Part shown: positions 16,610 through 56,597 of the stretch, piece after piece
Layout: each line of letters begins with the position of its first letter
Position numbering within the stretch: the stretch's first letter is position 1
Origin: an uncultured Thermoleophilia bacterium
GTDB lineage: Bacteria; Actinomycetota; Thermoleophilia; UBA2241
Direction of reading: 5' to 3'
Length of the DNA: 64,000 nt
Assembly: GCA_963747935.1 (NCBI GenBank)
Contig: CAVVGY010000006.1
Coordinates: forward strand, 105,161-169,160
Program-made: the position numbers and the translations under genes
Notes under the pieces: model-generated
What the model saw: the letters and a program-made list of their open reading frames with translations, nothing else
Told to the model about the DNA's origin: nothing
Database searches by the model: none

Positions 16610-16690
16610 ACGCACTCCTTTGCGACTACGCGGCGGTCCCAGAAAACGAGTGGGGTGACCACAGACTCAACGGCCCACTTGGGTGGGCCA

Positions 16691-22800: not shown

Positions 22801-23717
22801 TCGAATCCCGCCCGTCCGCTCACCGCGACCGCCCCGACCACGCCTCCCGCGGGACCCGAGAGGACCGCGTCCTTGCCGCGGAACAGCGCCGCGTCGGTAA
22901 GGCCGCCGTGCGACTGCATGAACCGCAGGCGGACGTCGCCCAGCTGAGCCGCCACGCCGTCGACGTAGCGCCTCAATATGGGGGAGAGGTAGGCGTCGAC
23001 CACCGTGGTCTCGCCGCGCCCGACGAGCTTCATCAGCGGGCTGGTGTCGTGCGAGACGGAGACCTGCGAGAAGCCGGCGGCGCGCGCCAGCTCCGCCACG
23101 CGCCGCTCGTGCTCCGGGTGGGCGTAGCCGTGGACGAAGGCGATGGCGCAGGCGTCCAGGCCGGCGCGGCGGGCTTCTTCGAGCCCGCGCCGCGTGCCCT
23201 CCTCATCGAGGGGGCGTACCACCTGCCCGTCCGCGCCCACGCGCTCGTCCACCTCGAGCACGCGCGCGTAGGCGGGCGCGGGCAGGCGGATGTCGAGCGC
23301 GAAGATGTCCGGACGGTCCTGATAGCCGATGCGCAGCGCGTCGCCGAACCCGCGCGTGGTCACGTACAGCGTCGGCGTGCCCTCGCGCTCCAGGAGCGCG
23401 TTGGTCGCCACGGTGGTGCCCATGCGGACCTCGGCGACGAGCGCCTCTGGGATCGGCTCGTCGCAGTCACAGTCGCCGCCGACACCGCCGCCGCCGTCAC
23501 GCTCGCCGCCGCCGCCACCCCGCAGCCCGAGCAGACGCCGCACCCCTTCGATCGCGGCGTCCTCGTACCGCCCCGGGTCTGCCGAGAGCAGCTTGTGGAT
23601 GCGCAGGGAGCCGTCCGGCGCCTGCGCCACCACGTCCGTGAACGTACCGCCGCGGTCGATCCAGAAGCGCCAGCCGGCGCCGCGCGAGGCGTGTTCTGCA
23701 GCCTTGGCTCCCATCAA
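19886..23717 (-). CDS. 5-oxoprolinase/hydantoinase, fused HyuA-HyuB single polypeptide (one frame break near 21750)
   Basis: The N-terminal HyuA part begins WRFWIDRGGTFTDVV. The C-terminal HyuB part contains LEVFNSLFMSIAEQMG...HLPVHLGSM. The HyuB frame is open upstream through the HyuA stop (…PREVAAVFTAGARHEAPVYLREDLGAGSVVEGPAVICEATSTTVVEPGW). Total length is 3n+1. Confidence 0.85.
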
Positions 23718-23840
23718 CCGGCGAGGCTACCACGGGCGCGGGCCGCGAGGGGCGGGCGGCGCGGGCGCGGTCAGGGGCCGCCGCGCCCGCAGGTCGCCGC
23801 CGGGCCGGGTGTGACTGTCCGTCCGGCCATCACGACGCCG

Positions 23841-24297: not shown

Positions 24298-24392
24298 GGA
24301 TAGCCGGCGGCTACACATTTTCGGCCTACCGTCGGCGCGAAGCGCCGAATGGATAGCCGTCGGCTATCCGCGAACAGAGTGTCCGTCGGTAG
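24298..24392. promoter_or_regulatory. Array of four CCG-N-CGG-centred palindromic sites (consensus TAGCCGnCGGCTA)
   Basis: GGATAGCCGGCGGCTACAC (24298-24316), CTACCGTCGGCG (24326-24337), the perfect palindrome GGATAGCCGTCGGCTATCC (24351-24369) and GTCCGTCGGTAG (24381-24392). Confidence 0.45.
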
Positions 24393-24415
24393 TGCTGGAG
24401 CGGTCGCTCGCCCGG

Positions 24416-24421
24416 TATACT
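24416..24421 (+). promoter_or_regulatory. Candidate -10 box TATACT 8 nt before the GTG start of nth (near-leaderless)
   Basis: Sequence reads GGTATACTCCCGTTTCGTG. No SD is present. Confidence 0.35.
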
Positions 24422-24429
24422 CCCGTTTC

Positions 24430-25111
24430 GTGAGCGCCCCGTCACCCGCAGAACGCCTCAAGCAGGCGACCGACATCCTGGACGACTTCTACGGCCGCCC
24501 CGTGCTCTCGCCGCGCTATCCGCCGGTCGACGAACTGGTGTTCACCGTGCTCAGCCAGAACACCGCCGACGTGAACACCGAGCGCACGTTCGCGTCGCTC
24601 AAGGCGAGGTTCCCGGACTGGACCTGCGGCGCGCGATGCGTCGTCCGAGGAGATCGAAGAGGCCATCGCCCTCGGCGGACTCGCGCACACCAAGGCGCCG
24701 CGCATCAAGCGGATCCTCGAGGCGATCAGCGAGCGGACCGGCGCGCCGGACCTCAGCGAATTGGACGAGATGAGCGACCAGGAGGCCGTGGACTACCTGG
24801 TCGCGTTGCCCGGGGTCGGACCCAAGACGGCCGCGTGCGTGCTGCTGTTCGCGCTCGGGCGGCCGGTGATGCCGGTGGACACGCACGTCCACCGGCTCGC
24901 CCGGCGACTCGGCATCATCGACGAGAAGGTGACGGCCGACCAGGCGCACCCGTTGCTCACGGAGCTGTCCGGCCCGGACGACGCGGAGCAGGTCTACGCC
25001 GTGCACGTGGACTTCGTGCGGCACGGCCGCCGCATCTGCCACGCCCGGCGGCCGGCCTGCGGGGAGTGCCCCCTGGCGCCGATGTGCCCGTCGGCCGGCC
25101 TACCTGCCTGA
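24430..25111 (+). CDS. nth: Endonuclease III (HhH-GPD DNA glycosylase with [4Fe-4S] loop); one frame break near 24620
   Basis: ELVFTVLSQNTADVNTERTF..., then in the next frame LPGVGPKTAACVLLFALGRPVMPVDTHVHR and CHARRPACGECPLAPMC. Length is 3n+1. Confidence 0.85.
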
Positions 25112-27843
25112 CCCGGCGGCCTCCGCGGCAGCCTGGGCCGCCGCCTTGGAGCACGCGTTGCCCGGGTCTTCGGCCGTGCCGAGCCAGCGGTCCAGCAGGT
25201 GGGTCTTCCAGACGAGCAGGCAGAGCTGGCTCCAGACGAACGCGAGCCCGAGCAGCACGAAGTACTGCCACCACGGCAGGGCGGTGATCTCGAACAACGT
25301 GCGCCCGAGCGGCACCACCAGCACCACGAGCATGCTCAGGAACAGGAACGCGACCACGCCCAGCATCCGGCTGTCGTTGCGCACGACGGGCGCGCCGCCG
25401 GCCCACCACTTGCTCGGCGGCACGATGAGCAGGATGAGGAAGATGGCGGCGAAGCAGGCGAAGATGGTCAGCGCCGTCATCGCCTGCGGGTAACCCGTGG
25501 CGGCTAGTTCGGTCTCCGTGGCGGCCGTGCCGGCGGCGACGTGCTCGGCCGGGATGCTCCAGACGAGGTAGACCCCGGTGCCGATCGCCGTCATGAACAC
25601 GACCGCGGGCATCACGAACCGGGCCAGCAGCTTGAACAGGCCGACCTTGGGCGTCGGGCCCGGCTGCGCCCACAGGGCGAAGGCGATGGCGGGCACCGTG
25701 GCGCCGAAGAACGAGAGCAGCGCCGACTGGCGGGGCGCGAACGGGAACCCGCCGATCATGGTGACGATGAGGATCATCGCCGCCTTGAAGAAGATGCGGA
25801 CCATGAAGATGCGCAGGATGTCGTTCATGCCGTTGATGATCCGCTGCCCCTCTGAGAAGGCGAACGGGAGCGGAGCGAACGTGTCCTTCATCAGGATGAG
25901 GTCGCCGACGCTGCGGGCGGCCTGGCTGCCGCCCTGCATGGCCACGGCGACGTTGGCCTGCTTGAGCGCGATGACGTCGTTGACGCCGTCGCCGATCATC
26001 GCGACGTAGCGGCCGCGGCTGCGCAGGGCCGCGACGAGGTCCTGCTTCTGCTCGGGCGTGACGCGGCCGAAGATGGCGGCTTCGTCGGCCTTGGCCGCGA
26101 ACTCGTCCGGAGGGAGCTCGGCGAGCTCGGCGCCGGAGACGGCCACGAGCTCGCGCGGCAGCGGCGCGGTGACGTCGTCGGGCGCGGCGGTGGGCGCGGC
26201 GGACCCGCCGGCGGATGGGCGTCGGGCGCGGAGGTCTCCGCCGCGCCCGTCACGAGGTCGCAGTACGAGTCCACGCCCTCGCGCCGTTGCAGCGTCTGCA
26301 TGCCGGCCTGCTTGGCGAGGGCGACGACCGTCTTGGGGTTGTCGCCGGAGATGACCTTGACGCTGATGCCGGCGTCGGAGAACCCCTTGAGCGTCTCGTG
26401 GACGCCCTCGCGCAGCTCGTCGCTGAAGCAGATGAGCGCGACGGCGCGGAGGCCGTCGGGCAGGACGGGCGGGGTGTCCGGGTCGGGGCCGAAGGCGACG
26501 GCGTCGTCGCGTCCGCAGAAGAGGACGACGCGCAGGCCGCGCGCGGCCCACTCGTCGGCCTGAGCGCGCCAGGCGGCTTCGGCGCCGGCGCCCAGCGCCG
26601 GCGCCAGCATCTCGGGCGCGCCGAGCACGTAGGTGCCCTGCGCGTCGCCGTCCGCGAACGCGAGGCCGCTCCACTTGCGGTCCGAGCTGAAGAAGGCCTC
26701 GTGTGCGGCCGTCACGCGCTCCGCCGGAAGCGCTGTGCGGAGCGCCTCGATCGTCCGGTTGGCGTCGGTGGTGCTGGCGGCGAAGGCGGCCAGCAGGTGC
26801 GTCGCCCGCTGCATGGCCTGCTCGCCGCTCGCGTCCGCGCCCAGCGGCGCCAGCTCCTCGAACTTCACCACGCCCGACGTGAGCGTCCCGGTCTTGTCGG
26901 TGCAGAGCACGTCCACGTTACTCAGGCTCTCGATGGCGTTGAACTGCTGCACCAGCACGTCCTTGCCGAGCAGGCGTACGGCTCCCAGGGCGTAGGTGAG
27001 CGCGATGCTCAGCACCAGTCCGTTGGGGATGAGCGCGAGGATGACGGTGGACATGCGCACGCTCTCCACGAACGGCACGTCCACGAGGATGTTGCGCGCC
27101 CACACGAGGGTCTCGAACACGATGACCACGATGAGCAGGACGCGCACGATCTGCAGCACCTGCCGCTGCAGTGGGGTGAGCTCGCGCTTGTAGGCCGTGG
27201 CCTTGGCGGTGAGCTTGTTGGCGAAGCTCTCGAGGCCGACGCGCTCCGCCTCGTAGAAGCCGCCGCCGGTCATGCAGAAGCTGCCCGACATGAGCTCGTC
27301 GCCGGGATGCTTGGTGACGAGGTCCGACTCACCGGTGAGCAGGCTCTCATCCACCTCCATGCGGCCCTCGCCGACCATCGGCCCGTCCACGACCACCTGG
27401 TCGCCGGGCTCGAGCCGGAGGATGTCGCCGAGCACGACCTGCGACGGGTCCAGATCGGTCAGCTGCCCGTCGCGGAGCACGTCGGCCTTGGGCCGCAGGA
27501 GGATCGCCATCTTGTCCATGACCCGCTTGGCGCGGACCTCCTGGAACAGGCTGATCACGGTGTTGGCGAAGATGACGAACACCACCGCGAACGCGTCCAG
27601 CGGCTTGCCCAGCACCAGCAGCAGGATGCCGAGGATGTAGAAGAGGTTGTTGATGAAGTTGAAGACGTTGTCCCGGACGATGCGCCCGTAGGTGCGCCCG
27701 GCGCGGATCTCGACGTCGTTGCCCTGGCCCGCGGCACGCCGCCGGTCGGCCTCAGCGGTGCTGAGGCCGGTGAGCGGCGGCGCGTCTGTCTCCACTGTGC
27801 TCATCAGGAGGACGGTACCAGAAGAGGGACGAGGGCGCGGCAC
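25100..27843 (-). CDS. P-type (HAD-type) cation-transporting ATPase; frame break near 26190-26215
   Basis: TGESDLV, phosphorylation motif CTDKTGTLT, hinge motif MIGDGVNDVIALKQA, and a C-terminal TM bundle in a second frame. The start is uncertain (27843 GTG or 27804 ATG). Confidence 0.85.
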
Positions 27844-27917
27844 CCTCTGTAGAGTCGCCCGCGCGCGGGCAGGGCAGCATAGTTGACGAGAGCGTCGTCG
27901 AAGCGGAGGGCGAGCGT

Positions 27918-28517
27918 GTGAAGGTACGCGACAGCGGCATGCCTGAGAGGGAGATGTGGGAGCGGCTCTTCGACGTGGAGCTCATACTCGAGCGCCTGCA
28001 GGTGGACGGCGCGCTCCGCGACGTTGCCGAACTGGGCTGCGGACACGGGACGTTCACGATCCCCCTCGCGCGCCGGACAGGCGGACAGGTGCGCGCCTTC
28101 GACGTGGAGCCGGAGATGGTCGAGGCGACGCGCCGGCGGGCGGCGGACGAAGGGCTGCGCAACGTCGCCGTGGAGCGTCGTGACGTCATCGCGGACGGCT
28201 TCGGGCTGCCGCCCGGCTCGCAGGACGCGTGCCTGCTCTTCAACATCCTGCACCACGACGACCCCGTGGCGCTGCTCGCCCTGGCCGCCGAGGTGGTCCG
28301 GCCGGGCGGCCGGGTGCTCGTCATCCACTGGCGGTACGACGCCTCGACCCCTCGCGGTCCCGACCTCAGCATCCGGCCACGGCCGGAGCAGATCGTGGAG
28401 TGGGCCGCCGCGACCGGTGCGCTCGGCGCGGACGGCGGCGTCATCGACCTGCCGCCGTGGCACTACGGGCTGGCCCTCGTGCGGCCGCTCAGGCCGGACC
28501 GGCGAGCGGCAGGCTGA
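27918..28517 (+). CDS. Class I SAM-dependent methyltransferase
   Basis: Motif I VAELGCGHGTF, an acidic loop FDVEPEMV, and post-I/II motifs. Confidence 0.8.
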   Translation: MKVRDSGMPEREMWERLFDVELILERLQVDGALRDVAELGCGHGTFTIPLARRTGGQVRAFDVEPEMVEATRRRAADEGLRNVAVERRDVIADGFGLPPGSQDACLLFNILHHDDPVALLALAAEVVRPGGRVLVIHWRYDASTPRGPDLSIRPRPEQIVEWAAATGALGADGGVIDLPPWHYGLALVRPLRPDRRAAG

Positions 28518-38922: not shown

Positions 38923-39014
38923 CCCCCTCTTCCGAAGGCTGGTGGCTGATTACTTCAAGGCTATCAAGCACCAGCCTTCGCGCACCAACGCCCTCTCGCC
39001 CGACGCTCAGATGC

Positions 39015-39046
39015 GAAAGGGGCGGGCCCGAAGGCCCGCCCCTTTC
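39015..39046 (-). terminator. Intrinsic-terminator-like GC hairpin after the por/stn operon
   Basis: GAAAGGGGCGGGCC-CGAA-GGCCCGCCCCTTTC, a perfect 14-bp stem 42 bp downstream of the porB stop. Confidence 0.7.
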
Positions 39047-39087: not shown

Positions 39088-42000
39088 CTACCGCAGCAGG
39101 CAACCCTCAGCCTGCAGGTACTCCTGCCACTCGGCCTCGCTGGGCTCGCCGCACTTCTTGAGCAGCTTCTCCCACTCGCGGTCCACCCAGGCCTCGAGGT
39201 TGAGCAGGATCTCCTCGTTGCCGGGCTTGAACAGGTGCGCGAACCGCCCCTGCTTCTTGAGCCAGGGGATGAGCGGCTTCTTGTAGCGCGGCCGGTAGGT
39301 CAGGCTGTACTCGCCGTCCACTACCTCGAACAACGGCCAGTAGCACGTCTCGACGGCCTCACGCGCGAGGGCGATCGTCTCCGCGCCGTCCGCGCGCCAG
39401 CCGCGGGGGCAGGGCGCCAGCACGTTGATGAACGTGGCGCCCGGCGTGTCCAGGGCCTTGGCCGACTTGCGCACGAGGTCGCGCGGGTCGTGCGGCGAGG
39501 CCTGGGCCACGTAGCCCAGCTCGTGGGCGATCATGATGTCGGTGAGGTTCTTGCGGTTCTGCAGCTTGCCCGCCTGCGCCTTGCCCACCGGGCTGGTGGT
39601 GGTCCAGGCGCCCTGCGGCGTCGCGCCGGAGCGCTGGAACCCGGTGTTCATGTAGGCGCCGTTGTCGTAGCAGACATAGAGCATCTGGTGGCCGCGCTCC
39701 ATGGCGCCGGAGAGCGACTGCAGGCCGATGTCGTAGGTGCCGCCGTCGCCGCCGAAGGCGATGAACTTGGTGTTCTCCTCGACGAGGCCCTTCTTCTTGA
39801 GGGCCCGGAACGCGGTCTCGACGCCGGAGAGGGTCGCGGCCGAGTTCTCGAAGGCGGTGTGGATGTAGCTGCCCTTCCACGAGGTGTACGGGTAGATGGT
39901 GGTGCTCACCTCGAGGCAGCCGGTCGCCGCGGAGACGACGATCGGGTCTTCTGTGCCCATGAGGATCTGGCGCACCGCCACCGGGGCGCCGCAACCGGCG
40001 CACATACGGTGGCCGCCGGCCAGTTCGCTGCCCTTGGAGACGAGTTCGCGCCACTTGGTGCGCGCGTCCTCGAAGTGGTTGGTCTCCTTGAGCGCGTCCA
40101 CCGGGCACACGTCCACGCACTCGTGGCACATGATGCAGCGGCTCTCGTCGATACGGTACGAGGCCAGGTCGCGCTCGTTGAAGGTGAGCGCGCCGGTGGG
40201 GCAGGCTGGTGACGCAGCGGCCGCAGCTGATGCAGTCGGCCAGCTGGAGGGCGTCGCTGTAGGGCGTGTCGACGTTGATGGTGAAGCCCCGGCCCGTGAA
40301 GTCGTAGCAGGCCGGGCCGGCCACGTCGCGGCACACGCGCACGCACTTGCCGCAGGCGATGCAGCGGCTCATGTCGCGGCGGATGAACGGATGCTCGGTC
40401 TGCGGCTCGACCTGGCGGACCATGTTGCCCTTCACGACCAGCTCGTTGTCGGTGACGTCGTACTCGACGCCGAGCTTCTGCAGGTCGCAGGCGCCGTTGC
40501 TCGGGCACTCGCACTGCAGGCAGCGGCTCGCCTCCGCACGCGCGGCGGCGAGGCTGTAGCCCTTCTCGACCTCGAGGTCGGTGGCCGTGAGGCGCTTCTG
40601 CTTGCCGACCTTGGGCATGGTGGCGCGAGGGGCAGGTTCTGCGCTCGCGCCCATCTTGAGCCACACCGGGCTGCGCTCGGCCAGCCGCTCGCCGAGCTCG
40701 CCGAGCTGCGCCTCGTCGGCGAGCTGGTCGAGGTACGGCAGGCTGTTGAACACGGCGAGCCGCTCCTCGAGCTGCTCGAGGTCCTGGCCGCCCAGCCACG
40801 CGTCGACGGCGAGCGCGGTGCGCTTGCCGCCGGCCACCGCGTGGATGACCGACTGGGAGCCGGTGACGGCGTCGCCGGCCGCGAACACGCCCTGTTCGGG
40901 CGTGCGGCCGGTGTAGTAGTTGCCGAGCAGCCGGGAGTCGGCCAGCGGCAGGTAGTCGGCACTCTCGCCCAGGCGCGGCGCGAAGCCGGTGGCCATGACG
41001 ACCGTGGTGGCGGCGAGCTCGAAGCGCGAGCCGCGGACCTCCTTGCGACGGCCCTTCTCGCGCACCACGCGGACGCACTCCACGCCCTGCGCCTTGCCGC
41101 TCTTGGTCTTGATCTTCTTGGCGAGCGCGCCGTACTCGACCTTGACGCCCTCCTCGAGGGCGGCGGCGAGGTCGCGGGCGCCGGCCGGGATGTCGTCGGC
41201 CTCGTGCTGGGCGATGACGACGACCTCTTTGGCGCCCTTGCGGCGCGCCGTGCGGGCCACGTCGAACGCCGTGATGCCGTCGCCGATCACGGCGACCTTC
41301 TGGGTGAACTTGACGGCACGGCCCTCGCGCACGCGCTTGAGGAGCTCCATGCCGTTCACCGCGACGTCGTCGCCGGGCAGCACGTGCCGCGGCTCCTCCC
41401 AGGTACCGACGCTGATGATCACGGCGTCGATGCCGGCGTCGAACAGGCCGTCGGGGTCGACCTCGTAGCCGAGCTCGGACTCGCCGACGAACCGCGCGCC
41501 GGCGTCCCACAGCGGGGCGAGCTCCTTCTCCACGACCTTGCCGGGCAGCCGGAACTCGGGGATGCTGTAGCGCAACGTCCCGCCCGGCTCCTCGTTGGCG
41601 TCGTAGACGGTGACCTCGTGGCCGGCCTGGATGAGGAACCAGGCGGCGGCCAGACCGGCCGGGCCCGCGCCGATGACGGCGACCCGCCGGCCGGTGGGCA
41701 CGCCCGGCACCAGCAGCGTCTCGCTGTGGTCGGCGGCCGCCCGGTGCAGGGCGCAGATGGCGATGGGCTCGTCCACGTCGCTGCGGCGGCACACGGGCTC
41801 GCAGTAGCGCGGGCACACGCGCCCGAGGATGCCGGGGAACGGCAGCTCGTCGCGCACGATGCCGGCCGCGCCGACGGCGTCTCCCGACGCCAGCGCGGCC
41901 ATGTACGCCGGGATGTCGATGTGCGTGGGGCACGCGTGCGAGCACGGCGCCTCGCAGTACGCGTTGTGGTCCGAGAGGTACATCTTGAGGTAGCTCTCGC

Positions 42001-42264
42001 GGCGCGCGCGTACTCGCTTGGTGTCGGTCTTGACGTTCAGACCGTCCTTGACCCACGTGGTGCAGGCGGCCTGGAGCTTGTCGAGGCCTTCGACCTCGAC
42101 CATGCACAGGCGGCAGGCGCCCCACGCGGCCATGCCCTCCTGGTGGCAGAGCGCGGGGATGTCGATACCCTCACGCCGCGCCACGTCGAGCACGGTCTCG
42201 CCCTCGCGGGCGTTGAGCTGGCGGCCGTCGACCGTGAGCTGGACGGCGGTCTTGGTGCGGGGGC

Positions 42265-42268
<4 letters not shown>
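39088..42268 (-). CDS. Fusion protein: [2Fe-2S] NuoG-N-terminal-like + GltD/NfnB-like NAD(P)H-FAD domain + [4Fe-4S] motifs + TPP-binding 2-oxoacid:ferredoxin oxidoreductase beta subunit (PorB); one frame break near 40207
   Basis: GTG 42268 follows GAAGGGAGG and overlaps the NuoF-like stop. Motifs in order: LTVDGRQLNAREGETVLDVA...CRLCMVEV; NAYCEAPCSHACPTHIDIP...FPGILGRVCPRYCEPVCRR; VAVIGAGPAGLAAAWFL; CIACGKCVRVC; CISCGRCVTS|CPTGAL (frame break); CIMCHECVDVCP; then PorB GGHRMCAGCGAP...FGGDGGTYDIGLQS...YDNGAYMNTG. Length is 3n+1. Confidence 0.8.
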
Positions 42269-44184
<1,916 letters not shown>

Positions 44185-44185
44185 G

Positions 44186-45004
44186 TCAGGCCTCCTTCTT
44201 GCGGAGCTGACGGACGAGCTTGCGCGCCGACTGCGGCGTCACGCGTGCGTGCGTGACCTCTTCGCCGATGCGGACGGCCGGCGCGAGCGCGCAGGCGCCG
44301 ATGCAGTTGACGGTCTCGAGCGTGAACAGCAGGTCGGGCGTGGTGCCGCCGACCGGGACGTCCAGCTCCTGCGCGAACGCCTCGGCTACGAGCGGCGCGC
44401 CGGCGACGTGGCAGGCGGTGCCCATGCAGACGTGGATGACGTTCTTGCCGACCGGATTGAGGCGGAACTGGGCGTAGAAGCTGGCGACGCCGAACACGCG
44501 CGAGAACGGCAAGTGCGCCTCCTCGGCGATGTTCTCGAGCGCGACGCGCGGCAGGAACCCGTAGGCCTCCTGCGTGGCGTGCAGCGCCTGGACCAGGCCG
44601 GTGCCGGAGCGGATGCCGGCCACGACGGGGTCGAAGAGCTTCATGTCGATCTCCGGCACGAACCCGGCCGGCTTCTCGCCGATGACGCAGGCGGAGTTGG
44701 CGCCGCAGCTCTCACCCGGCAGGGTGGCGAGCGCGGCGGCACGCTCGGCCTCGCGGTCGAACGGGAGCTCTTCGAACTCCGGGCAGTAGTCGATCTCGAT
44801 GCAGTCCACGGGGCACTTGCGCTCGCACAGGGTGCAGGCGTAGCACTTGTACGCGCCCGCCTTGTCCTTGACGAGGTCGAACAGACCCACGCCGCGAGGC
44901 TTCTCGACGAGCTCGCGGCGCTCGAAGTCGATGCCCTTGAGGACTTCGTACAGGGCCGAGCCCTTGGGCTCGGTCGCGGTGTTGCCGTCGGAACGTCTCG
45001 GCAT
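44186..45004 (-). CDS. NuoE/HydC-like [2Fe-2S] subunit with an N-terminal ferredoxin-like [4Fe-4S] motif
   Basis: CYACTLCERKCPVDCIEI, then the NuoE core LPRVALENIAEEAHLPFSRVFGVASFYAQF...VCMGTACHVAG...NCIGACALAP. ATG 45004 follows GAGGTGA; the alternative start is GTG 45013. Confidence 0.85.
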   Translation of the reverse strand: MPRRSDGNTATEPKGSALYEVLKGIDFERRELVEKPRGVGLFDLVKDKAGAYKCYACTLCERKCPVDCIEIDYCPEFEELPFDREAERAAALATLPGESCGANSACVIGEKPAGFVPEIDMKLFDPVVAGIRSGTGLVQALHATQEAYGFLPRVALENIAEEAHLPFSRVFGVASFYAQFRLNPVGKNVIHVCMGTACHVAGAPLVAEAFAQELDVPVGGTTPDLLFTLETVNCIGACALAPAVRIGEEVTHARVTPQSARKLVRQLRKKEA

Positions 45005-45014
45005 CCCGGTCACC

Positions 45015-46217
45015 TCAGTCCTTCCGCAGGTTCAGGTACCGACGCTCGGTAGAGACCCGCTTCTTGCTCTTGGCAGCCTTCTCGAGCTCGGCGAACGCCT
45101 GCTCGATGTTGTCTGGGAAGATGTCGCGTCCGCCGAGGCCGTAGATGAACGGCAGGACCTGCGGGCGCGGGTCGCAGTCGTAGAGGGCGCTCCGCACCTC
45201 GAGGAACACGGGGCCGCCCTGGGCGCCGAACGAGTCGGCGCGGTCCATGACGCCCACCACCTTCACGTGCTGGAGCGCCTTGGCGTACGCCTCGTGCGGG
45301 AACGGCCGGAAGACGCGCACGCGCACCATGCCGGCCTTGACGCCGCGGGCGCGCAGCTTGTCGACCGTCATCCGCGTCGTGCCGGCGGTGGAGCCGACGA
45401 CGACGATGGCGATCTCGGCGTCCTCGAGCTGGTACGTCTCGAGCAGGTCGTACTGACGGCCGCTCAGCTCGGCGTACTCGTCGGCGACGTCCTGGATGAC
45501 CTTGAGCGAGCGGTCCATCGCCCGGTTCTGGGCGACCTTGTGCTCGAAGTACCAGCCGTGCAGGCCGTCGAACGGGCCGACGGTGACGGGGTTCTTGGCG
45601 TCGAGCATGGGGTTGGTGGGGCGGTAGGGCCCGATGAACTTCTGGACCTGGTCCTTGGTGAGCATCTGCAGCGGGCCGATGGCGCCGCTGATGACGTAGC
45701 CGTCGTACATGTGCATGACCGGCAGGCGCACGTCCATGTGCTCGGCGATGCGGATGGCCTGGATGCAGTTGTCGTAGGCCTCCTGGTGGTTCTCGCCGTA
45801 GAGCTGGACCCAGCCGGTGTCGCGGCCGCCCATGGTGTCGCTGTGGTCGCAGTGGATGTTGATGGGGCCTGAGAGGGCGCGGTTCACAGTGGTCATGACC
45901 ACCGGGAGCCGGTAGCTCGCGGCGACGAACAGGACCTCCCACATGAGGGCGAAGCCCTGGGAGGAGGTCGCGGTCATCGTCCGCGCGCCGCCGGCGGCGG
46001 AACCGATCACGGCGCTCATGGCGCTGTGCTCGCTCTCGACGGTCACGAACTCGGTGCCGACCTTGCCGTCGGCGACCATCTGCGCGTAGAGCTGGACGAC
46101 CTCGGTCTGCGGGGTGATGGGATAGGCGCAGACGACGTCGGGGTCGATCTGGCCCATCGCCTCGGCGACGGCCTCGTTGCCGGTGACCGCCAGGATCGGA
46201 GACTCAGTGATGGCCAT
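45015..46217 (-). CDS. porA: 2-oxoacid (pyruvate-type):ferredoxin oxidoreductase alpha subunit
   Basis: VTGNEAVAEAMGQIDPDVVCAYPITPQTEVV...VESEHSAMSAVIGSAAGGARTMTATSSQGFALM. Confidence 0.9.
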   Translation of the reverse strand: MAITESPILAVTGNEAVAEAMGQIDPDVVCAYPITPQTEVVQLYAQMVADGKVGTEFVTVESEHSAMSAVIGSAAGGARTMTATSSQGFALMWEVLFVAASYRLPVVMTTVNRALSGPINIHCDHSDTMGGRDTGWVQLYGENHQEAYDNCIQAIRIAEHMDVRLPVMHMYDGYVISGAIGPLQMLTKDQVQKFIGPYRPTNPMLDAKNPVTVGPFDGLHGWYFEHKVAQNRAMDRSLKVIQDVADEYAELSGRQYDLLETYQLEDAEIAIVVVGSTAGTTRMTVDKLRARGVKAGMVRVRVFRPFPHEAYAKALQHVKVVGVMDRADSFGAQGGPVFLEVRSALYDCDPRPQVLPFIYGLGGRDIFPDNIEQAFAELEKAAKSKKRVSTERRYLNLRKD

Positions 46218-46219
46218 GG

Positions 46220-46609
46220 TCACTCCTTCTTGTCGATCTGCATGACGATGGCCTTGGTGGGGCACTCCTTGGCGCAGATGCCGCAGCCCTTGCAGTGCTC
46301 GAGGTCGATGCCGGTCGCCTTGTTGTCCTCGACGACGATCGAGGCGTCGGGGCAGTAGAAGTAGCAGAGCATGCAGCCGTCGCACTTCTCCACGTCGATC
46401 TCGGGGACGAGCGAGCGCCAGCCTCCGGTCTCGTTGTAGACGGAGTTGCCGGCCTCGATGATCGTGGCGCCGAGCTCGTGGCGCTCAGGGCCCCACTGGT
46501 CGACGTCGCTGATGTCCCAGGTCGGCTTCTTCTTGGCGGGCGCTTTGCGCGCCGCAGGCTTCTTGAGCGGCGCCGGCTTCTTGGCGCCTGCCTTCTTGTC
46601 CACGGTCAT
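46220..46609 (-). CDS. porD: 2-oxoacid:ferredoxin oxidoreductase delta subunit (2x[4Fe-4S])
   Basis: CDGCMLCYFYCPD and CKGCGICAKECP motifs, with a Lys/Ala-rich N-terminal extension. Confidence 0.9.
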   Translation of the reverse strand: MTVDKKAGAKKPAPLKKPAARKAPAKKKPTWDISDVDQWGPERHELGATIIEAGNSVYNETGGWRSLVPEIDVEKCDGCMLCYFYCPDASIVVEDNKATGIDLEHCKGCGICAKECPTKAIVMQIDKKE

Positions 46610-47214
46610 TCGCCCTGGACCTCCTCGTAGCTGCGCGTGATGGCGGCGATGTTGCCCTCGACGACCTTGGGCGGGAACTTCTTGCCGAAGTCCTCGCGCA
46701 GGAACGTGACGACGTCATCGATGTCGAACAGTCCGGTGATGCGCGTGAGCGCGCCGACCATCGGCGTGTTGGGGATGGGGCGCTTGATGGTCTCCACGGC
46801 GATGCGCGTGGCGGCGATGGTGTACAGCCGGCCGTGCTCGAGCGCCGAGTCCTTGCGAAGCTGGGCCGGGGAGCGCTCGCTGTTGACGAGCACGATGACG
46901 TCGTCGGGCGCGCCCTTGGTGACGTCGACGATCTTGAGCAGGGAGGAGTCGAGCACGACCACGATCTGCGGGTGCTCGATGCCCGAGTACACCTGGATCG
47001 GCGCGTCGCTGACGCGCGTGAACGCGACGATCGGCGCGCCGGAGCGCTCGGGACCGTACTCGGGGAAGGCCTGGAAGTACTTGCCCTCGCCCAGCGCGAG
47101 CTCCGCGACCATCTTGGCCGCGGTCACGGCGCCCTGCCCGCCGCGGCCGTGCCAGCGGATCTCGGTGAGGGCCGGGGTGGCCTCCGCCTTGTTCTTGCCG
47201 GTCTTCGTCGCCAT
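46606..47214 (-). CDS. porG: 2-oxoacid:ferredoxin oxidoreductase gamma subunit
   Basis: IRWHGRGGQGAVTAAKMVAELALGEGKYFQAFPEYGPERSGAP. ATG 47214 follows GGAGAGGAG; the alternative GTG 47220 overlaps the recR stop. Confidence 0.9.
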   Translation of the reverse strand: MATKTGKNKAEATPALTEIRWHGRGGQGAVTAAKMVAELALGEGKYFQAFPEYGPERSGAPIVAFTRVSDAPIQVYSGIEHPQIVVVLDSSLLKIVDVTKGAPDDVIVLVNSERSPAQLRKDSALEHGRLYTIAATRIAVETIKRPIPNTPMVGALTRITGLFDIDDVVTFLREDFGKKFPPKVVEGNIAAITRSYEEVQGE

Positions 47215-48685: not shown

Positions 48686-50565
<1,880 letters not shown>

Positions 50566-50593
50566 CGGATGGCTAGTGTACCTCGGCGGCCGG

Positions 50594-52065
50594 TCAGGAG
50601 ATGACCGCGAAGTCGATGAACCCGCGCTCCGGGTCGGCGTCCACGAGGCGCACGCGCACGGCGTCGCCCACGTCCAGCTCGTCGGCGCCCTCCACCACGC
50701 GGCCCTCCACCGGCGGGTCCACCGCGCGCACCCACGTGCCCTTGGGGCTCGCGCCGGTGACGAAGCCGTCGAACTCGTCGCCGAGGCGCTCGACCAGGAA
50801 GCAGGCGGCGGCCGACTTGCGCACGCGCCGCTCCACCTTCTGCGCCTGGTCCTCCTGGCGCGTGCAGTGGTCGGCGAGCTCCACCAGCCGCTCGCCGCTG
50901 TACGGGCTGCGGCGCGCCGGCGAGCGCCGCCTTGACCAGGCGCTGCGTGATCAGGTCCGGGTAGCGGCGGTTGGGCGCCGTGGAGTGCGCGTAGTGCGTC
51001 ACCGCGAGGCCGAAGTGCCCGTCGATGGGCTCGCCCGGCCGGGTCGCCTCGTACTCGCCGCTGCCGAGCAGCTTGATGATCGCCAGCGAGAGGTCGGGGA
51101 AGCGCTCGGGGTCGGCGGCGCGCCGCTCGCTCGAGGAACGCGTTGAGCGACGGCGCGTCGGGCTCCTCGGGCAGCAGGAAGCCGTAGGTGTCGGCGAGGT
51201 CGACGATGCGCTGCCAGCGCTCCGGCTCGTGCACCACGCGGCGCACCACGGGGAACCGCTTGCCGGCGAGGTAGCGGGCGACGACGCCGTTGGCGGCGAT
51301 CATGAAGTCCTCGATGAGCTCCTTGGCGCGGTCGCGCGGCTCGACCACGAGGCCGCTGACGGCGCCGCCGTCGAAGCGCGCGTGCACCTCGAGCGTCTCG
51401 AGGTCGAGCGCGCCCTGCTCGCGGCGGCGCGCCCGCAGGCGCTGCGCCACGGTGTGCTGCAGCCGCACGTTCTCGGCCAGGCCGGGGACGGCCGCCAGCG
51501 CGGGCGGCATGTCGTCCTCGCCCTGGAGCCACGCCCCGACTGACGGGTAGGCGAGCTTGGCGTGGTTGTGCACGAGGGCGCGGCGCACGTCGTCCGCCAC
51601 CACCGCGCCGTCCTCGCCGACGGTCATTCCGACGACGATCGCCAGGCGGTCCTCACCCGGGTTCAGCGACGTGAGGTCCGTGCTGAGGCGGTCCGGCAGC
51701 ATGGGGAAGATGCGCGCCGGCGTGTAGACGGAGGTCGTGTTGACGCCGGCGTGCGCGTCGATCGCCGAGCCGGGCGCCACGGTCGCGCTCACGTCGGCGA
51801 TCGCCACCAGGATCCGGGTTCCGCCGGCCACCTCGCCCTCGGCCACGGTGAGCTGGTCGAGGTCGAGGGAGTCGTCATTGTCGATGGAACACCACAGCAG
51901 ACCGCGGAGGTCTTCGGCGCCCGCGCCGTCCGGCGGCAGGTCGTCGAGCGCGCGGGCCTCCGCGACCGCGCGCGCCGGGAACTCGGGCTCCAGACCGTAC
52001 TCGACCATCGCGTCGCGCGCGACGCGCATCAGCAGGTCGCGCTGGTCGTCCTGGTGCGCGCTCAC
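50594..52065 (-). CDS. RNase II/R-family exoribonuclease-like protein with a C-terminal S1-like domain; two frame breaks
   Basis: [13 protein letters not shown]..., [44 protein letters not shown] (second frame) and [15 protein letters not shown] (third frame). GTG 52065 follows AAGGAGGAA. Breaks lie at about 51120 and 50916. Confidence 0.75.
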
Positions 52066-52937
52066 CGGCGTTCCTCCTTCTCGGGGCCACAGGTAGCACA
52101 GTCGTCCTCCGCCGTGACCGACCTGGCGATCGCCGGCGCGGCTCGTCCTCGCCCTTCGGCCGCAGGCGCGTGCGCAGCACGGCCATGGCCTCCGCCGGCG
52201 TGTCGACGAAGTGCAGGAGCTTGAGGTCGGCGGCGTCCACCATGCCCTGGCGGACCAGGGCGTCGAAGTCCACGATCTCGTTCCAGTACCGCGTGCCGTA
52301 GAGCAGTGTGGCCGGCGGCGGATCGATCTTGCCGGTCTGCGACAGAGTCAGGAACTCGAACAGCTCGTCGAGGGTGCCGAACCCGCCCGGGAACACGATG
52401 AGCGCCCGCGCGACGTAGGCGAACCACAGCTTGCGCATGAAGAAGTAGCGGAACTCGAACGAGAGGCCCGGGGTGATGAACGGGTTGGGGCGCTGCTCGT
52501 GCGGCAGGCCGATGTTGAGGCCGATGGAGCGGCCGCCGGCGTCCTGGGCTCCACGGTTGGCGGCCTCCATGATCCCGGGGCCGCCGCCGGTGCACACGAG
52601 GTAGCGGTGGGCTGGGCTCTTGAGCCCTTCGGACCACTCCGTGACCTGGCGCGCGACCTCTCGGGCGGCGGCGTAGTACTCGGCCAGGGGTCCGTCTTCG
52701 GTGATGCGCGCGGACCCGAAGAAGACGATGGTGTCGTGGATACGCCGGCGGCGGAACACGCCGAGCGGCCGCAGGTACTCGGCCAGGATGCGGAGCGGCC
52801 GGCCCTCGTCGCTCGTCGATGAACCCGGCGTCGTGGTAGGCGAGCGGGTCGCGGTCCGGCTGCGGGTCATCGGGCTGCTGCTCGCCGGGCTGGGGCTCGG
52901 GCGCGCCGGGAGGGGGAGCGTCGGGCGGGCGGTTCAT
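52062..52937 (-). CDS. LOG/TIGR00730-family (lysine-decarboxylase-like) Rossmann protein; frame leaves and returns
   Basis: The core lies in one frame: TIVFFGSARI, TGGGPGIMEAANRGA, PGGFGTLDELFE. The N-terminal piece AYHDAGFID and the terminal stop, which overlaps the RNase GTG (GTGA), lie in another frame. Total length is divisible by 3. Confidence 0.7.
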   Translation of the reverse strand: MNRPPDAPPPGAPEPQPGEQQPDDPQPDRDPLAYHDAGFIDERRGPAAPHPGRVPAAARRVPPPAYPRHHRLLRVRAHHRRRTPGRVLRRRPRGRAPGHGVVRRAQEPSPPLPRVHRRRPRDHGGRQPWSPGRRRPLHRPQHRPAARAAPQPVHHPGPLVRVPLLLHAQAVVRLRRAGAHRVPGRVRHPRRAVRVPDSVADRQDRSAAGHTALRHAVLERDRGLRRPGPPGHGGRRRPQAPALRRHAGGGHGRAAHAPAAEGRGRAAPAIARSVTAEDDCATCGPEKEERR

Positions 52938-53298: not shown

Positions 53299-54261
53299 CT
53301 ACTCAGGCTGCTGAGCGGCCGGCGGCTGCCGAGCGTCCGGCCCGGCCGCCTGAGCGAGTCCGGCGAGGGAGGCCGCGCGGCCGACGGCCGCGACCACCGC
53401 GTCGGGGTCCGAGAACTGGGGCATGTGCCCGGCGCCGGGCACGCGCACGAGCTCCGAGCGCGGCACCAGGGTGTGGAGCCGCTCGGACACCGCGGGCGGC
53501 ACCATGCGGTCCTCCGCGCCGACCACGATCACCAGCGGGACCTGCAGACCGGGGTAGCGGGGCCGCAGGGCGGCCAGGCCCTCTTCGGCCATCTGACGGT
53601 CGGCGCCGTCGGTCCTGAGCGCCGCGGGTTGCAGCGCCAGGCGCGGCGCGATGTCGAGGTACGCGGCCGGCGCCGGCGTGGGGGAGAAGGCGCGCTCGAC
53701 GGCGCCGCGTACCAGCGGGCGTCCGAGGCGGGAGCGGCCCAGAGCGCCGACGGCCTGCAGCACGGCCGGGTACCGCATCAGCTTGACCACCCACGGCGGG
53801 GGGCCTCCGAGCGGCAGCGCGTACGCGCCGAGCGTGACCACCGCCGCGACCTCGTCCGGGGCGTCGAGCGCCCAAGCGAGGGCCACAGCGGCGCCCATGG
53901 AGTGGCCCACGAGGATCGGGCGCTCGAGCCCGAGCTGCCGGGCGGCGGCGCGCAGCACCGCCGCCTGTGCCTCGGGCCGGTTCGCCCCGTCCGGCGGCCT
54001 GCCGCTGAAGCCCGATCCCGGACGGTCCATCGCCACGGTCGTGTAGCTCTCGGCCAGTCGCGGTCCCAGCGAGAGCGTGAAGTCGTAGGTGGAGCCTTTG
54101 GCGCCGTGGACGTAGACGAGCGCCGGTCCCTCGCCGGCGCGCACGAAGTGCACGCGCACACCCCCGGCGACGACGAACGAGCCCGGCGGAGTCAGGGCTG
54201 CCGGTCTGCCTGCGGATCCACCCCTCATGCAGGCAGTCTTGGCGGTGACGTCCAGTTGCAA
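53299..54261 (-). CDS. Alpha/beta-fold hydrolase
   Basis: An HG oxyanion region (LVYVHGAKGS), the nucleophile elbow LVGHSMGAAVA, and a C-terminal GAGHMPQF. The start is uncertain. Confidence 0.85.
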   Translation of the reverse strand: MQLDVTAKTACMRGGSAGRPAALTPPGSFVVAGGVRVHFVRAGEGPALVYVHGAKGSTYDFTLSLGPRLAESYTTVAMDRPGSGFSGRPPDGANRPEAQAAVLRAAARQLGLERPILVGHSMGAAVALAWALDAPDEVAAVVTLGAYALPLGGPPPWVVKLMRYPAVLQAVGALGRSRLGRPLVRGAVERAFSPTPAPAAYLDIAPRLALQPAALRTDGADRQMAEEGLAALRPRYPGLQVPLVIVVGAEDRMVPPAVSERLHTLVPRSELVRVPGAGHMPQFSDPDAVVAAVGRAASLAGLAQAAGPDARQPPAAQQPE

Positions 54262-54289
54262 ACCTCTGACCCCCGGCTACAGTGAGGTC

Positions 54290-56597
54290 GTGGGCACACG
54301 TCGTCACCTCTTCGCGGCGCTGATCGTGGCGCTGGTCGTCCTGGCGGTCGCCCTTGCGGTGACACCGTGGGACGCGCCGGGACCCGTCTCGAGCGCTGCT
54401 CCGGCCGACCGGTTCTCCTCGGAGCGCGCCATGGACGTCCTGCGGCACATCGCGGCCGAGCCGCGTCCCATAGGCTCCCGGCAGTCTGCGGTCGTGAGGG
54501 AGTACATCTTCGCCCGCCTGCAGGCTCTGGCGTTGATGCCTCACGTGCAGGCCAACGAGGTGGTGTCCCAGCGCGAGCCGCGCGTGGCCGGGCTCGTACA
54601 CAACGTGGTCGGCCGCCTGCCCGGCCGGGACCCGTCTCGGGCGGTGCTCCTCGTGGCTCACTACGACTCCGTGGCGACGGCGCCCGGTGCCGCGGACGAC
54701 GGCAGCGGCGTCGCCGCCCTCCTCGAGACGGCGCGCGCCCTGCGCGCCGGCCCGCCGCCCGCCAACGACATCATCTTCCTGTTCACGGACGGGGAGGAGC
54801 GGGGGCTGCTGGGCTCCCAGTCGTTCCTGGAGCGGGAGCCGTGGGCGTATGCGGCCGGCGTGGTGCTGAACTTCGACAGCGCCGGCTCGTCGTCTCCGGC
54901 GCTCATGTACGAGACCAGCCCGCAGAACGGCCGGCTGGTCCAGGCCTACCTCGCCGCCGGTCGTCCCTACGGGTCGTCGCTGATGTACGAGGTGTCCCGG
55001 CGCCAGCCCGTGGTGAGCGACTTCCGCCCGTTCGTGGCGAGGGGCATCCCCGGCATGACCTTCGGCATGCTGGACGGCCCGGCCTACGACCACACCGCCT
55101 ACGACTCGCTGGGCTCCTTCCACGAGGCGGGGCTGCAGCACGAGGGCGAGACGGCGCTCGCGCTGGCGCGCCGCCTGGGTGACGCCGACCTCTGGTCGCT
55201 GCGCGGCCCGGACCTCGTCTACTTCGACCTCACCGGGAGCGTGGCGGTCTCGTACCCGACGTCCTACGTGCGCCCGTTCATGTACGTCGCCCTTGCGCTG
55301 TTCGTGGCCGCCGTGGCGCTCGCCGCGCGTCGCAGGCTCCTGACACTGCGCGGGGTGGCCTGGGCGACGCTCGGCACCAGCGCCACACTGTGTGCGTCCC
55401 TGCTGGTCGTGGCGATCGGCTGGTCGATGTACCGCACGGCCTATGAGGAGCGCGTGTGGACCGGCACCGGCGTGGTGATCAGCGACTGGTACCGGCTGGG
55501 TCTGGTGCTGCTGGCGGCGGCCGTGGTGCTCGGCATCTACGCCGGCCTGCTGCGCCGCCTGCGCGCCTGGGACCTCGCCGTGGTGGCGCTCGCCTGGTGG
55601 GCCGCCGGCTCGGTGATCGTCGCGCTGTCGTTCCCCGGCGCCAGTTACCTGCTCACGTGGTCGCTGGCGGGCGGCGCGCTTGGGCTCGCCGGCGCCGCCC
55701 TCGTCGACCGGCCCGGGGACGGCCGTCCGGCGGCCGCGCTCATCGCCCTGGCCGGCGCCGTGCCCGGGCTCATGCTCCTGAGCTCCGCGGTGTACCTGCT
55801 GCTGATGTCCGCCGGGCTCAAGCAGGGCGTCACCGTGCTGGCCGTCTGGCTGCTCGCCGGCCTGCTGATGCTGCCGCTCGCCAGCCGTCCTGCGGGCGTT
55901 CCGGTTCTGGCTGCCGGGGGCGCTCGCCGTGGCCGGCGTGGTGGTGCTGTTCGCCGTCGGGTCCACGGTGGCGTTCGACAGCCAGCACCCCAAGTTCACG
56001 AGCGTCTCCTACCGCCTGGCGCCGAACGGCAAGGCCACCTGGGAGACCATCGACCGCCCCGACGCCTACACGCGCACGTTCCTCGGCGCCTCATCGAGCC
56101 GGCAGATGGTGCCGCAGTACTACCCGCAGTTCGGGTCGCAGGCCATCACCAGCGGGCCGGCGCCCGTCTACGCCTTGCGCAGGCCGGCCATCAAGGTCCT
56201 CTCGGACGTGACGGTCGGCGACCGCCGCACCGTGAAGCTCAGGCTGCGCCCGCAGGGCGAAGCCGCGGTGCTCAGCCTGCTGGTGCACACCGTGGTCGGC
56301 ACCCTGAGCGCGAGCGTCGACGGGCACGCCCTGGCCGGGCGGGACACGACGCTCTTTGACGCCAGCAACGTGCGCTGGTCGTTCGACTACTACGCCCCGC
56401 CGCCGGAGGGCGTCGAGGTCACGCTCGACTTCGCCGCGGGACCCAAGGTGCAACTGCGAGCCGTGGACTTCACGTACGGGTTGCCGGCCGGCGCCGCCGG
56501 GTCCTACCCGGCCCGGCCGGCCGGCATGCTGCCGGGCCGCCTCGGCGACGGCACGCTCACCGAGACGACGCTCAGGCTGCCGGCGACCCAGCGCTGA
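54290..56597 (+). CDS. M28-family metallopeptidase fused to a polytopic membrane domain; one frame break near 55885-55900
   Basis: LLVAHYDSVATAPGAADDGSGVAALLE and FLFTDGEERGLLGSQ, then about 8 TM helices. The C-terminal domain continues in the +1 frame (FWLPGALAVAGVVVLFAV...). The start is uncertain. Confidence 0.8.

Follow-up and report, generated by a model that had tools for sequence, protein, structure and literature searches.

Por-Bfu is a predicted, uncharacterised Type 2 Bfu enzyme of Dehalococcoides (Chloroflexi) and syntrophic Proteobacteria, for which the available text of Schut et al. (2022, PMC9304861) proposes a reaction that couples pyruvate/acetyl-CoA with NAD(H) and ferredoxin, also as a pyruvate synthase, and places BfuB in clades 35, 44 or 45. 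Among the Bfu-type enzymes with solved structures, the NfnA subunit of C. saccharolyticus is built, in this order, of an N-terminal domain, an NfnL-like domain and an Fdh/NuoG-like domain with a remnant pterin site (PMC11829005). Here we describe a gene joining an NfnA-like BfuA to PorB, found in a stretch of 64,000 nucleotides (the window) of contig CAVVGY010000006.1 (positions 105,161 to 169,160, forward strand; assembly GCA_963747935.1) from an uncultured Thermoleophilia bacterium (Actinomycetota). From its predicted subunits, the locus is read as a hard-wired variant of the predicted Por-Bfu class. As deposited, the bfuA::porB gene (39088..42268 of the window, minus strand) lies in two frames, and the best explanation as a whole, to which we give a probability of about 0.82, is that a single spurious extra base at 40204-40209 breaks what is one 1059-residue protein.

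A frame break inside the bfuA::porB gene

The gene and its parts are listed here in window coordinates.

39088..42268, minus strand: bfuA(nfnA-like)::porB fusion gene, 1059 codons plus stop after removal of one base, two frames as written (identified from the frames, the repair, Pfam and full-length orthologues)
40205..42268, minus strand: NfnA-like part, codons 1-688, with a [2Fe-2S] domain, an NfnL/GltD-like flavin adenine dinucleotide (FAD) domain, a linker and the first Fe-S motifs (CIACGKCVRVC, CISCGRC...)
40087..40390, minus strand: Fe-S cluster region across the break, with three CxxCxxCxxxC motifs (C636.., C679..C689-P, C711..C721-P)
40201..40209, minus strand: frameshift site, ACC-AGCC-TGC, one base more than the orthologue pattern ACC-NNN-TGC-CCC (T-x-C-P), placed by a 30-locus DNA alignment, the switch in third-position G+C and Cys-Pro conservation
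39181..40026, minus strand: PorB module, residues 748-1029, the thiamine pyrophosphate (TPP)-binding beta subunit of a 2-oxoacid:ferredoxin oxidoreductase (from 9bt4_C, NCBIfam and TPP_enzyme_C)
39088..40131, minus strand: 347-aa open reading frame (ORF), the gene-caller 'PorB', starting inside the third cluster motif (MCHECVDVCP)

The fusion gene starts with GTG at 42268, with GGGAGG 6 nt upstream, and this start overlaps the stop codon of the upstream NuoF-like gene (GTGA). On the minus strand its upstream frame reads ...ADCISCGRCVTS and loses its coding signal at ~40205: the frame gives ...LADCISCGRCVTS (also given as ...YSDALQLADCISCGRCVTS) before the break and then LPHRRAHLQRARPG..., and the coding signal past this point moves to the next frame, up to the stop at 39088. 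In a genome of 70% G+C such as this one, G+C content at third codon positions (GC3) marks the reading frame sharply: in the upstream frame it is 0.96-1.00 down to ~40240 and then ~0.5, and in the neighbouring frame it is 0.88-1.00 between ~40200 and 39100. Translation and the GC3 drop together confirm what an earlier note on this sequence had observed, namely that the upstream frame turns to nonsense here. An independent unsupervised segmentation of the whole window puts the frame switch at 40205/40206.

When one base is deleted, the sequence reads ...CVTSCPTGALTFNERDLASYRIDESRCIMCHECVDVCPVDAL... and yields a product of 1059 aa ending with the stop at 39090-39088. Left unedited, the upstream frame meets its next stop at 39361-39359, 845 nt on (the earlier note had put this at about 850 nt), giving 969 aa. 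The earlier note located the extra base at about 40207. There is indeed one surplus base there, but the culprit cannot be named, because the frame and the Cys-Pro pair both return whichever base of AGCC (40207-40204) is taken out, and equally on loss of the second C of CACC, and residue 688 is variable among orthologues (S/A/T/D/V...). The frameshift sits in the NfnA-like part, at the last residue before a conserved cluster cysteine, and not at a domain boundary. The one-base shift restores the cluster motifs and runs into PorB as had been claimed: in the protein alignment Cys689 is found in 115/116 and Pro690 in 116/116 orthologues, the orthologue junctions read C(I/T)(S/T)CGRCVxxCPTG(A/S)L, and the motif cysteines that were checked are all at least 99% conserved.

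A search with the repaired protein returned more than 100 orthologue clusters (60-93% identity, 98-100% coverage). Almost all of the best 120 matches, which were those examined, are 1010-1085 aa long with both the GltD-like and the TPP domains present; the best one (P0001) shares 93% identity and has exactly 1059 aa, and the automatic JGI names of orthologues mention both halves. A scan of species-representative genomes gave 31 related loci, nearly all from metagenome-assembled genomes (MAGs) labelled Thermoleophilia or Actinomycetes, the closest of them (L001) at 95% DNA identity. By tblastn the fusion gene lies in a single frame in 26/31 loci, and in the DNA alignment of the junction the extra base is absent from 28/30. 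The comparison of orthologues proposed in the earlier note, directed at a separate, shorter PorB with its own ribosome-binding site and start, found none in the Bfu-linked loci, nor a stop and restart between the halves; the only free-standing porB (L029) belongs to a plain porG-porD-porA-porB operon without NuoEF-like genes. A continuous bfuA::porB fusion as the true gene, as had been proposed, is strongly supported by these sequence comparisons. Among representatives clustered at 50% identity, the full fused architecture is confined to one representative plus fragments (a single cluster), and hundreds of proteins of 1000-1300 aa match residues ~8-725 only. The scaffold of residues ~8-725 is thus widespread, and the PorB fusion is therefore a narrow, lineage-specific invention.

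Origin of the extra base

The break is very probably technical, a Nanopore consensus or long-read assembly error, in line with the assembly indel proposed earlier. Besides this break, at least five frameshifts were seen in conserved genes of the window; the well-supported sites in its 64 kb number at least 6 and lie in unrelated conserved genes. Two of them, near 51150 and near 50920, fall in an RNase II/R-like gene (50562-52347, minus strand), where RNB profile positions 2-248, RNB positions 259-325 and the RNase_II_C_S1 domain each have a frame of their own; the first RNB frame continues into dnaX, creating a false 1079-aa 'RNB+DnaX' ORF (48826..52065). A P-type ATPase gene (25100-27981, minus strand) is split near 26200 (E1-E2_ATPase and Hydrolase positions 2-137 in one frame, Hydrolase positions 144-191 in the next), and an EndoIII-like gene (24304-25287, plus strand) changes frame near 24640, its HhH-GPD profile match beginning at position 35. 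Compared with the Microflora Danica-independent loci L003, L010 and L020, and with L001, dnaX (minus strand) lacks one base near 49402 and has one more near 48941, two mutually compensating indels on either side of a variable Pro/Ala-rich linker.

Frameshifts were counted as frame junctions with protein-level support from at least 4 independent query proteins apiece; a DNA-level indel listing against five relatives proved too noisy in variable regions and was replaced by this count. The Microflora Danica long-read catalogue (MFD) is Nanopore-only, with Flye assembly and one Medaka polishing round (PMC12313526). Its loci (n=19) have 43 frameshift sites in 328 kb, or 1 per 7.6 kb, spread over 13/19 loci, whereas the loci from non-MFD MAGs (n=11, presumed to be short-read) have 0 in 108 kb; at an equal frameshift rate, the probability of none in the latter is 7e-7. 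The closest relatives of the window are Nanopore-only MAGs. The fusion gene itself is frameshifted in 5 loci, all MFD, and ENA proteins P0038, P0112, P0115, P0119, P0120 and P0027 are visibly frameshifted at other positions. Constraint is not relaxed downstream of the break: measured against five relatives, dN/dS does not differ between the two sides (0.13-0.22 after the shift, 0.16-0.20 before). Downstream GC3 remains 0.9-1.0, and L001 shares 97% identity with the PorB part (residues 741-1059). The frameshifted 36-mer has no match in JGI metagenome contigs, and a metagenome scan for the junction with 2-5 bases allowed at the variable codon also returned no match. Three proteins of the window, looked up by exact sequence, likewise gave no match, and the assembly of the window itself was in none of the collections searched.

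Some observations weigh against a technical origin. The site is not a long homopolymer (only CC and CCCC), so it is not a classic Nanopore error context. In the junction alignment two other loci have their own +1 insertions nearby: L019 within 10 nt (at ~10062, CACCG vs CACG) and L028 ~25 nt upstream (CACGCTG vs CAGCTG). This is a mild coincidence, by our estimate of the order of one in twenty, and it suggests either a locally error-prone context (GCTGCGGCCGCTGCG repeats) or something systematic. The former is the simplest reading because L019 and L028 are heavily frameshifted elsewhere (5 and 4 frameshift sites, respectively). No common motif was found among the insertion sites of the window, L019 and L028. 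A methylation motif, CAGCTG, present at the corrected window site and in L028, was considered and dropped, as the indels at ~49402 and ~48941 and that of L019 lack it; homopolymer error was likewise rejected, the dnaX indels at ~49402 and 48941 not lying in long runs either. The errors that could be placed look like general low-coverage consensus errors more than homopolymer errors.

If the extra base were real, a recent frameshift mutation in the strain or population, the NfnA-like part would be truncated after residue 688 and followed by 281 nonsense residues, PorB would be untranslated or made from Met 40131 with half a cluster motif, and the complex would be inactivated. The base is present in the sequence as given, the lack of a long homopolymer would suit such a mutation, and genuine pseudogenes do occur in MAG populations; however, the frameshift density of the window is far above usual pseudogene loads and fits that of the Nanopore-only relatives, not that of the non-MFD ones. 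Together with the absence of downstream decay and of metagenome matches to the frameshifted 36-mer, this makes a real mutation unlikely. The reading as two genuine genes, one for a GltD-like iron-sulfur flavoprotein and another for a PorB with its own start at ATG 40131, can draw on a mechanical 347-aa ORF that has an ATG, and on ordinary POR operons, L029 among them, in which PorB normally stands alone. But this ATG, the first ATG/GTG/TTG of the downstream frame, lies inside the conserved third CxxCxxCxxxCP motif, as the earlier note had objected; other operon genes have GGAGG-type ribosome-binding sites, next to which the ACGAGAG upstream of this ATG is poor; and the coding signal of the PorB frame starts ~75 nt further upstream, where there is no start codon. 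The upstream gene, for its part, would run on for 845 nt without a stop through 281 residues that are non-coding-like (GC3 ~0.5). An independent PorB was rejected on its mid-motif start, the early coding signal and the lack of any such organisation among the Bfu-linked loci, and deserves very little credence.

A programmed shift (+1 ribosomal frameshifting or transcriptional slippage, perhaps setting how much short NfnA-like product is made relative to the full fusion) would fit the +1 insertions that L019 and L028 have within ~35 nt of the same place, and the two frames do overlap openly for ~160 nt. The insertions of the window, L019 and L028, however, are at different nucleotides, two of them in loci full of other frameshifts, and the shift is absent from 26/31 loci and 115/116 protein clusters. 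Inspection by eye showed no known +1 motif: the site has no in-frame stop and no stretch of 7 or more identical bases. RNA folding on its 3' side was no better than that of 10 of 200 shuffles (z = -1.55). Programmed frameshifting was rejected on conservation, motif and stimulatory structure, and is highly improbable. A gene caller would read the deposited locus as a 969-aa chimera plus a truncated 'PorB', and a conserved 1059-aa subunit would stay hidden; gene calling that allows for frameshifts is needed for the window and for many Nanopore-only MAGs of this lineage.

Four more candidate frame switches were seen at other places in the window. Near 21800 the hydantoinase/oxoprolinase A and B ORFs (19886-23726, minus strand) abut, and each holds a piece of the Hydant_A_C domain; this points to a hyuAB fusion gene interrupted by a frameshift. 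A second GltD-like/FAD/ferredoxin cluster (12155-16666, minus strand; domains Fer4_20+Pyr_redox_2 and Pyr_redox_2+Fer4) has candidates near 16350 and 14200, and an M28 peptidase gene (54116-56597, plus strand) has one near 55880. L028 (CAVQOO010000064.1) is labelled Bryobacteraceae (Acidobacteriota), yet holds the Thermoleophilia operon at ~90% identity, and is probably a mis-binned contig.

Domains, operon and predicted electron path

Pfam domains of the repaired protein are Fer2_4 (residues 7-83), Fer4_20 (104-182), Pyr_redox_2 (195-481), Fer4_Nqo3 (627-695), a Fer4 dicluster (676-727) and TPP_enzyme_C (782-949). Over residues 9-695 the protein is collinear with the NfnA chains 9bov_A (C. 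saccharolyticus, E 2e-129), 8oh5_C (S. ovata) and 9n5u_A, with E values from 2e-129 to 1.5e-107. The label GltD-like::PorB given by the earlier note was therefore right but incomplete, the N-terminal 695 residues being a full NfnA/BfuA-type subunit. Alignments to 9bov_A and 8oh5_C end at query residues 695-706, before any C-terminal Fdh/NuoG-like domain. The PorB module matches the PorB chain 9bt4_C (E 2.4e-79) over chain residues 9-287 of 296, and is complete from about residue 9 of a free-standing PorB. Taken together, the matches to solved NfnA, NfnB and PorB chains fix the architecture.

The other genes of the operon, and the hairpin that follows it, are as follows.

46606..47214, minus strand: porG/porC, gamma subunit (PorC_KorC 204 bits, cutoff 81)
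46220..46609, minus strand: porD, delta subunit, 2x[4Fe-4S], with a Lys/Ala/Pro-rich N-terminus (PorD_KorD 93.8 bits, cutoff 60)
45015..46217, minus strand: porA, alpha subunit, POR_N + PFOR_II, start ATG 46217
44186..45013, minus strand: bfuC, NuoE-like [2Fe-2S] subunit with an N-terminal extension of ~135 aa, start GTG 45013 or ATG 45004
42265..44184, minus strand: bfuB, NuoF-like flavin mononucleotide (FMN)/NAD(H) subunit, N-terminally thioredoxin-like and with 2x[4Fe-4S] at the C-terminus (Pfam and PDB matches)
39009..39042, minus strand: terminator-like GC hairpin, GGGGCGGGCC-UUCG-GGCCCGCCCC then UUUC, 10 bp stem, 46 nt past the fusion stop

The operon order is porG-porD-porA-bfuC-bfuB-bfuA::porB, with the fusion gene last. 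Wherever a locus extends far enough, the order recR-porG-porD-porA-bfuC-bfuB-bfuA::porB is kept; bfuB and bfuA overlap in relatives, and bfuC adjoins bfuB in all loci. In effect, a classical operon has taken up bfuCBA between its porA and porB genes, and bfuA has become fused to porB. The hairpin probably marks the end of the operon; it was missed by a simple terminator scan, its T run being short. BfuB contains 2Fe-2S_thioredx (residues 36-111), Complex1_51K (189-360), NADH_4Fe-4S (471-555) and Fer4 (572-624), and its best PDB matches, near full length, are 7t2r_B (7.5e-237), 8a6t_B, 9bov_B, 8oh5_B and 9n5u_B (1e-215 to 1e-237), all of them B subunits of bifurcating enzymes. BfuC has 2Fe-2S_thioredx at residues 139-270 (E 6e-41).

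By its architecture, the fusion is the A subunit of a Bfu-type (HydABC/NfnABC-like) flavin-based bifurcating module joined in frame to a complete PorB. In the mechanism that we propose, PorABDG would oxidise pyruvate, or a related 2-oxoacid, with coenzyme A at TPP; electrons would leave the PorB cluster, travel along the fused chain of clusters and by way of A1 [2Fe-2S], and reach the FMN-cluster site of BfuB/BfuC, there to be shared between NAD+ and ferredoxin. Run backwards, the enzyme would make pyruvate at the expense of NADH and reduced ferredoxin. A third nucleotide site may be supplied by the FAD domain, although the NADPH-specific motif is not conserved, and since PorD is retained, a direct exit to ferredoxin may coexist. 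The FAD Rossmann motif is conserved among orthologues (RVAvxGAGPAGL), whereas the second nucleotide motif, GDGITAFD, is only partly so: at residues 325-352 (~41295-41210), VVGGGNTAMD ... YRR of NfnA reads VIGDGITAFD ... AQH. It is possible that the FAD domain no longer binds NADPH, and that it is a relic, uses NADH or serves in electron transfer only.

Several points tell against this functional reading. The YRR of 9bov_A aligns with AQH, at positions that vary across the 116 orthologues. PorA_Arch scores 487.5 bits, below its cutoff of 550, and NCBIfam PorB 351.3 bits, below its cutoff of 405; the 2-oxoacid substrate is uncertain because PorA and PorB fall below these equivalog cutoffs, pyruvate being our best guess and another 2-oxoacid possible. 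Bifurcation, according to the available text of Schut et al. (PMC9304861), has not been demonstrated for any Por-Bfu enzyme.

No description of a fused BfuA-PorB architecture was found in the literature searched. The chances are about even that the soil Thermoleophilia fusion represents an undescribed Bfu subclass, in which POR is wired via PorB to the NfnA-type input subunit of a NuoEF-like core, its FAD site, without NADPH specificity, being a relic or a fourth redox site. If so, it would be the first genetic proof of POR and Bfu acting as one complex. Por-Bfu has so far been only a gene-neighbourhood prediction, and an in-frame BfuA-PorB fusion, shared by more than 100 sequence clusters from abundant soil Actinomycetota, gives direct evidence for one machine; the fusion also offers a target of fixed stoichiometry for purification and cryo-electron microscopy. 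If the enzyme bifurcates, interconversion of pyruvate and acetyl-CoA would be coupled to both the NAD(H) and the ferredoxin pools, which bears on the redox balance of these soil bacteria under low oxygen. The frameshift is ordinary in itself; the gene that it hides is of moderate interest for flavin-based electron bifurcation.

Comparison with described systems

The locus shares with Bfu enzymes in general a BfuB with a NuoF core, an N-terminal thioredoxin-like domain and C-terminal 2x[4Fe-4S], a NuoE-like [2Fe-2S] BfuC encoded beside it, and a BfuA whose N-terminal [2Fe-2S] (A1) and [4Fe-4S] clusters would, judging by sequence, feed the BC core. The likeness to NfnA of NfnABC (9bov; 8oh5, Stn; the archaeal 9n5u) extends to the collinearity of residues 9-695, to the succession of N-terminal, NfnL-like and cluster domains given in PMC11829005, and to the Bfu-type NuoF/NuoE-like partners. 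In contrast to the ~1170-aa NfnA of C. saccharolyticus and S. ovata, however, the Fdh/NuoG-like C-terminus is replaced by an extra CxxCxxCxxxCP motif and a whole PorB; the YRR motif for the NADPH 2'-phosphate in the C. saccharolyticus protein is AQH here and not conserved in the family; and the gene lies in a por operon.

Relative to PorABDG (9bt4), alpha, beta, gamma and delta modules with the expected domains are all present, including a TPP-binding beta subunit, but the beta subunit does not exist as a polypeptide of its own, porA and porB are separated by bfuC, bfuB and bfuA, and PorA and PorB miss the curated equivalog scores of the pyruvate synthase. PadEFGHI of Azoarcus is reportedly an NADH-dependent phenylglyoxylate dehydrogenase with a 2-oxoacid oxidoreductase core and a separate GltD-like FAD subunit that connects this core to a pyridine nucleotide; it is said to have no NuoE/NuoF-like subunits, and its beta subunit PadI to have an N-terminal ferredoxin-like extension. 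The enzyme of the window is reminiscent of this system in having a 2-oxoacid oxidoreductase core together with a GltD-like part, and the window ORF matches positions 123-430 of the NCBIfam PadI profile, but all scores are far below the Pad cutoffs (~200 vs 700 bits), and the GltD-like module is fused here.

A BfuA homologue without PorB, the metagenomic protein P0124 (L034 8001-10451, L035 1237-3687; 45% identity over residues 3-747), has the same Fer2_4-GltD-Fer4 module following Bfu-type NuoE/NuoF genes. Unlike the fusion, it ends where PorB would begin and holds the position of NuoG in a complex I operon (nuoA,B,C,D,H - nuoE - Bfu-type nuoF - P0124 - nuoJ,K,L,M,N); the same input module has therefore been reused with different partners. 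This setting fits the 'Nuo-Bfu' idea in the available text of Schut et al. (2022, PMC9304861).

The same text, so far as available, does not name Thermoleophilia (Actinomycetota) for Por-Bfu, and 'Actinobacteria' has no match in it. As in the Por-Bfu class that it outlines, four POR subunit genes and bfuABC are found in one cluster here. That class, however, has seven separate subunits and a small, cluster-only BfuA, and the Type 2 layout comprises separate subunits A-G with a BfuA lacking a catalytic or flavin domain; at this locus BfuA has an NfnL-like FAD domain (Pyr_redox_2) and is fused to PorB. In bearing FAD, the BfuA of the fusion is like that of Type 1 Nfn-Bfu as presented there.

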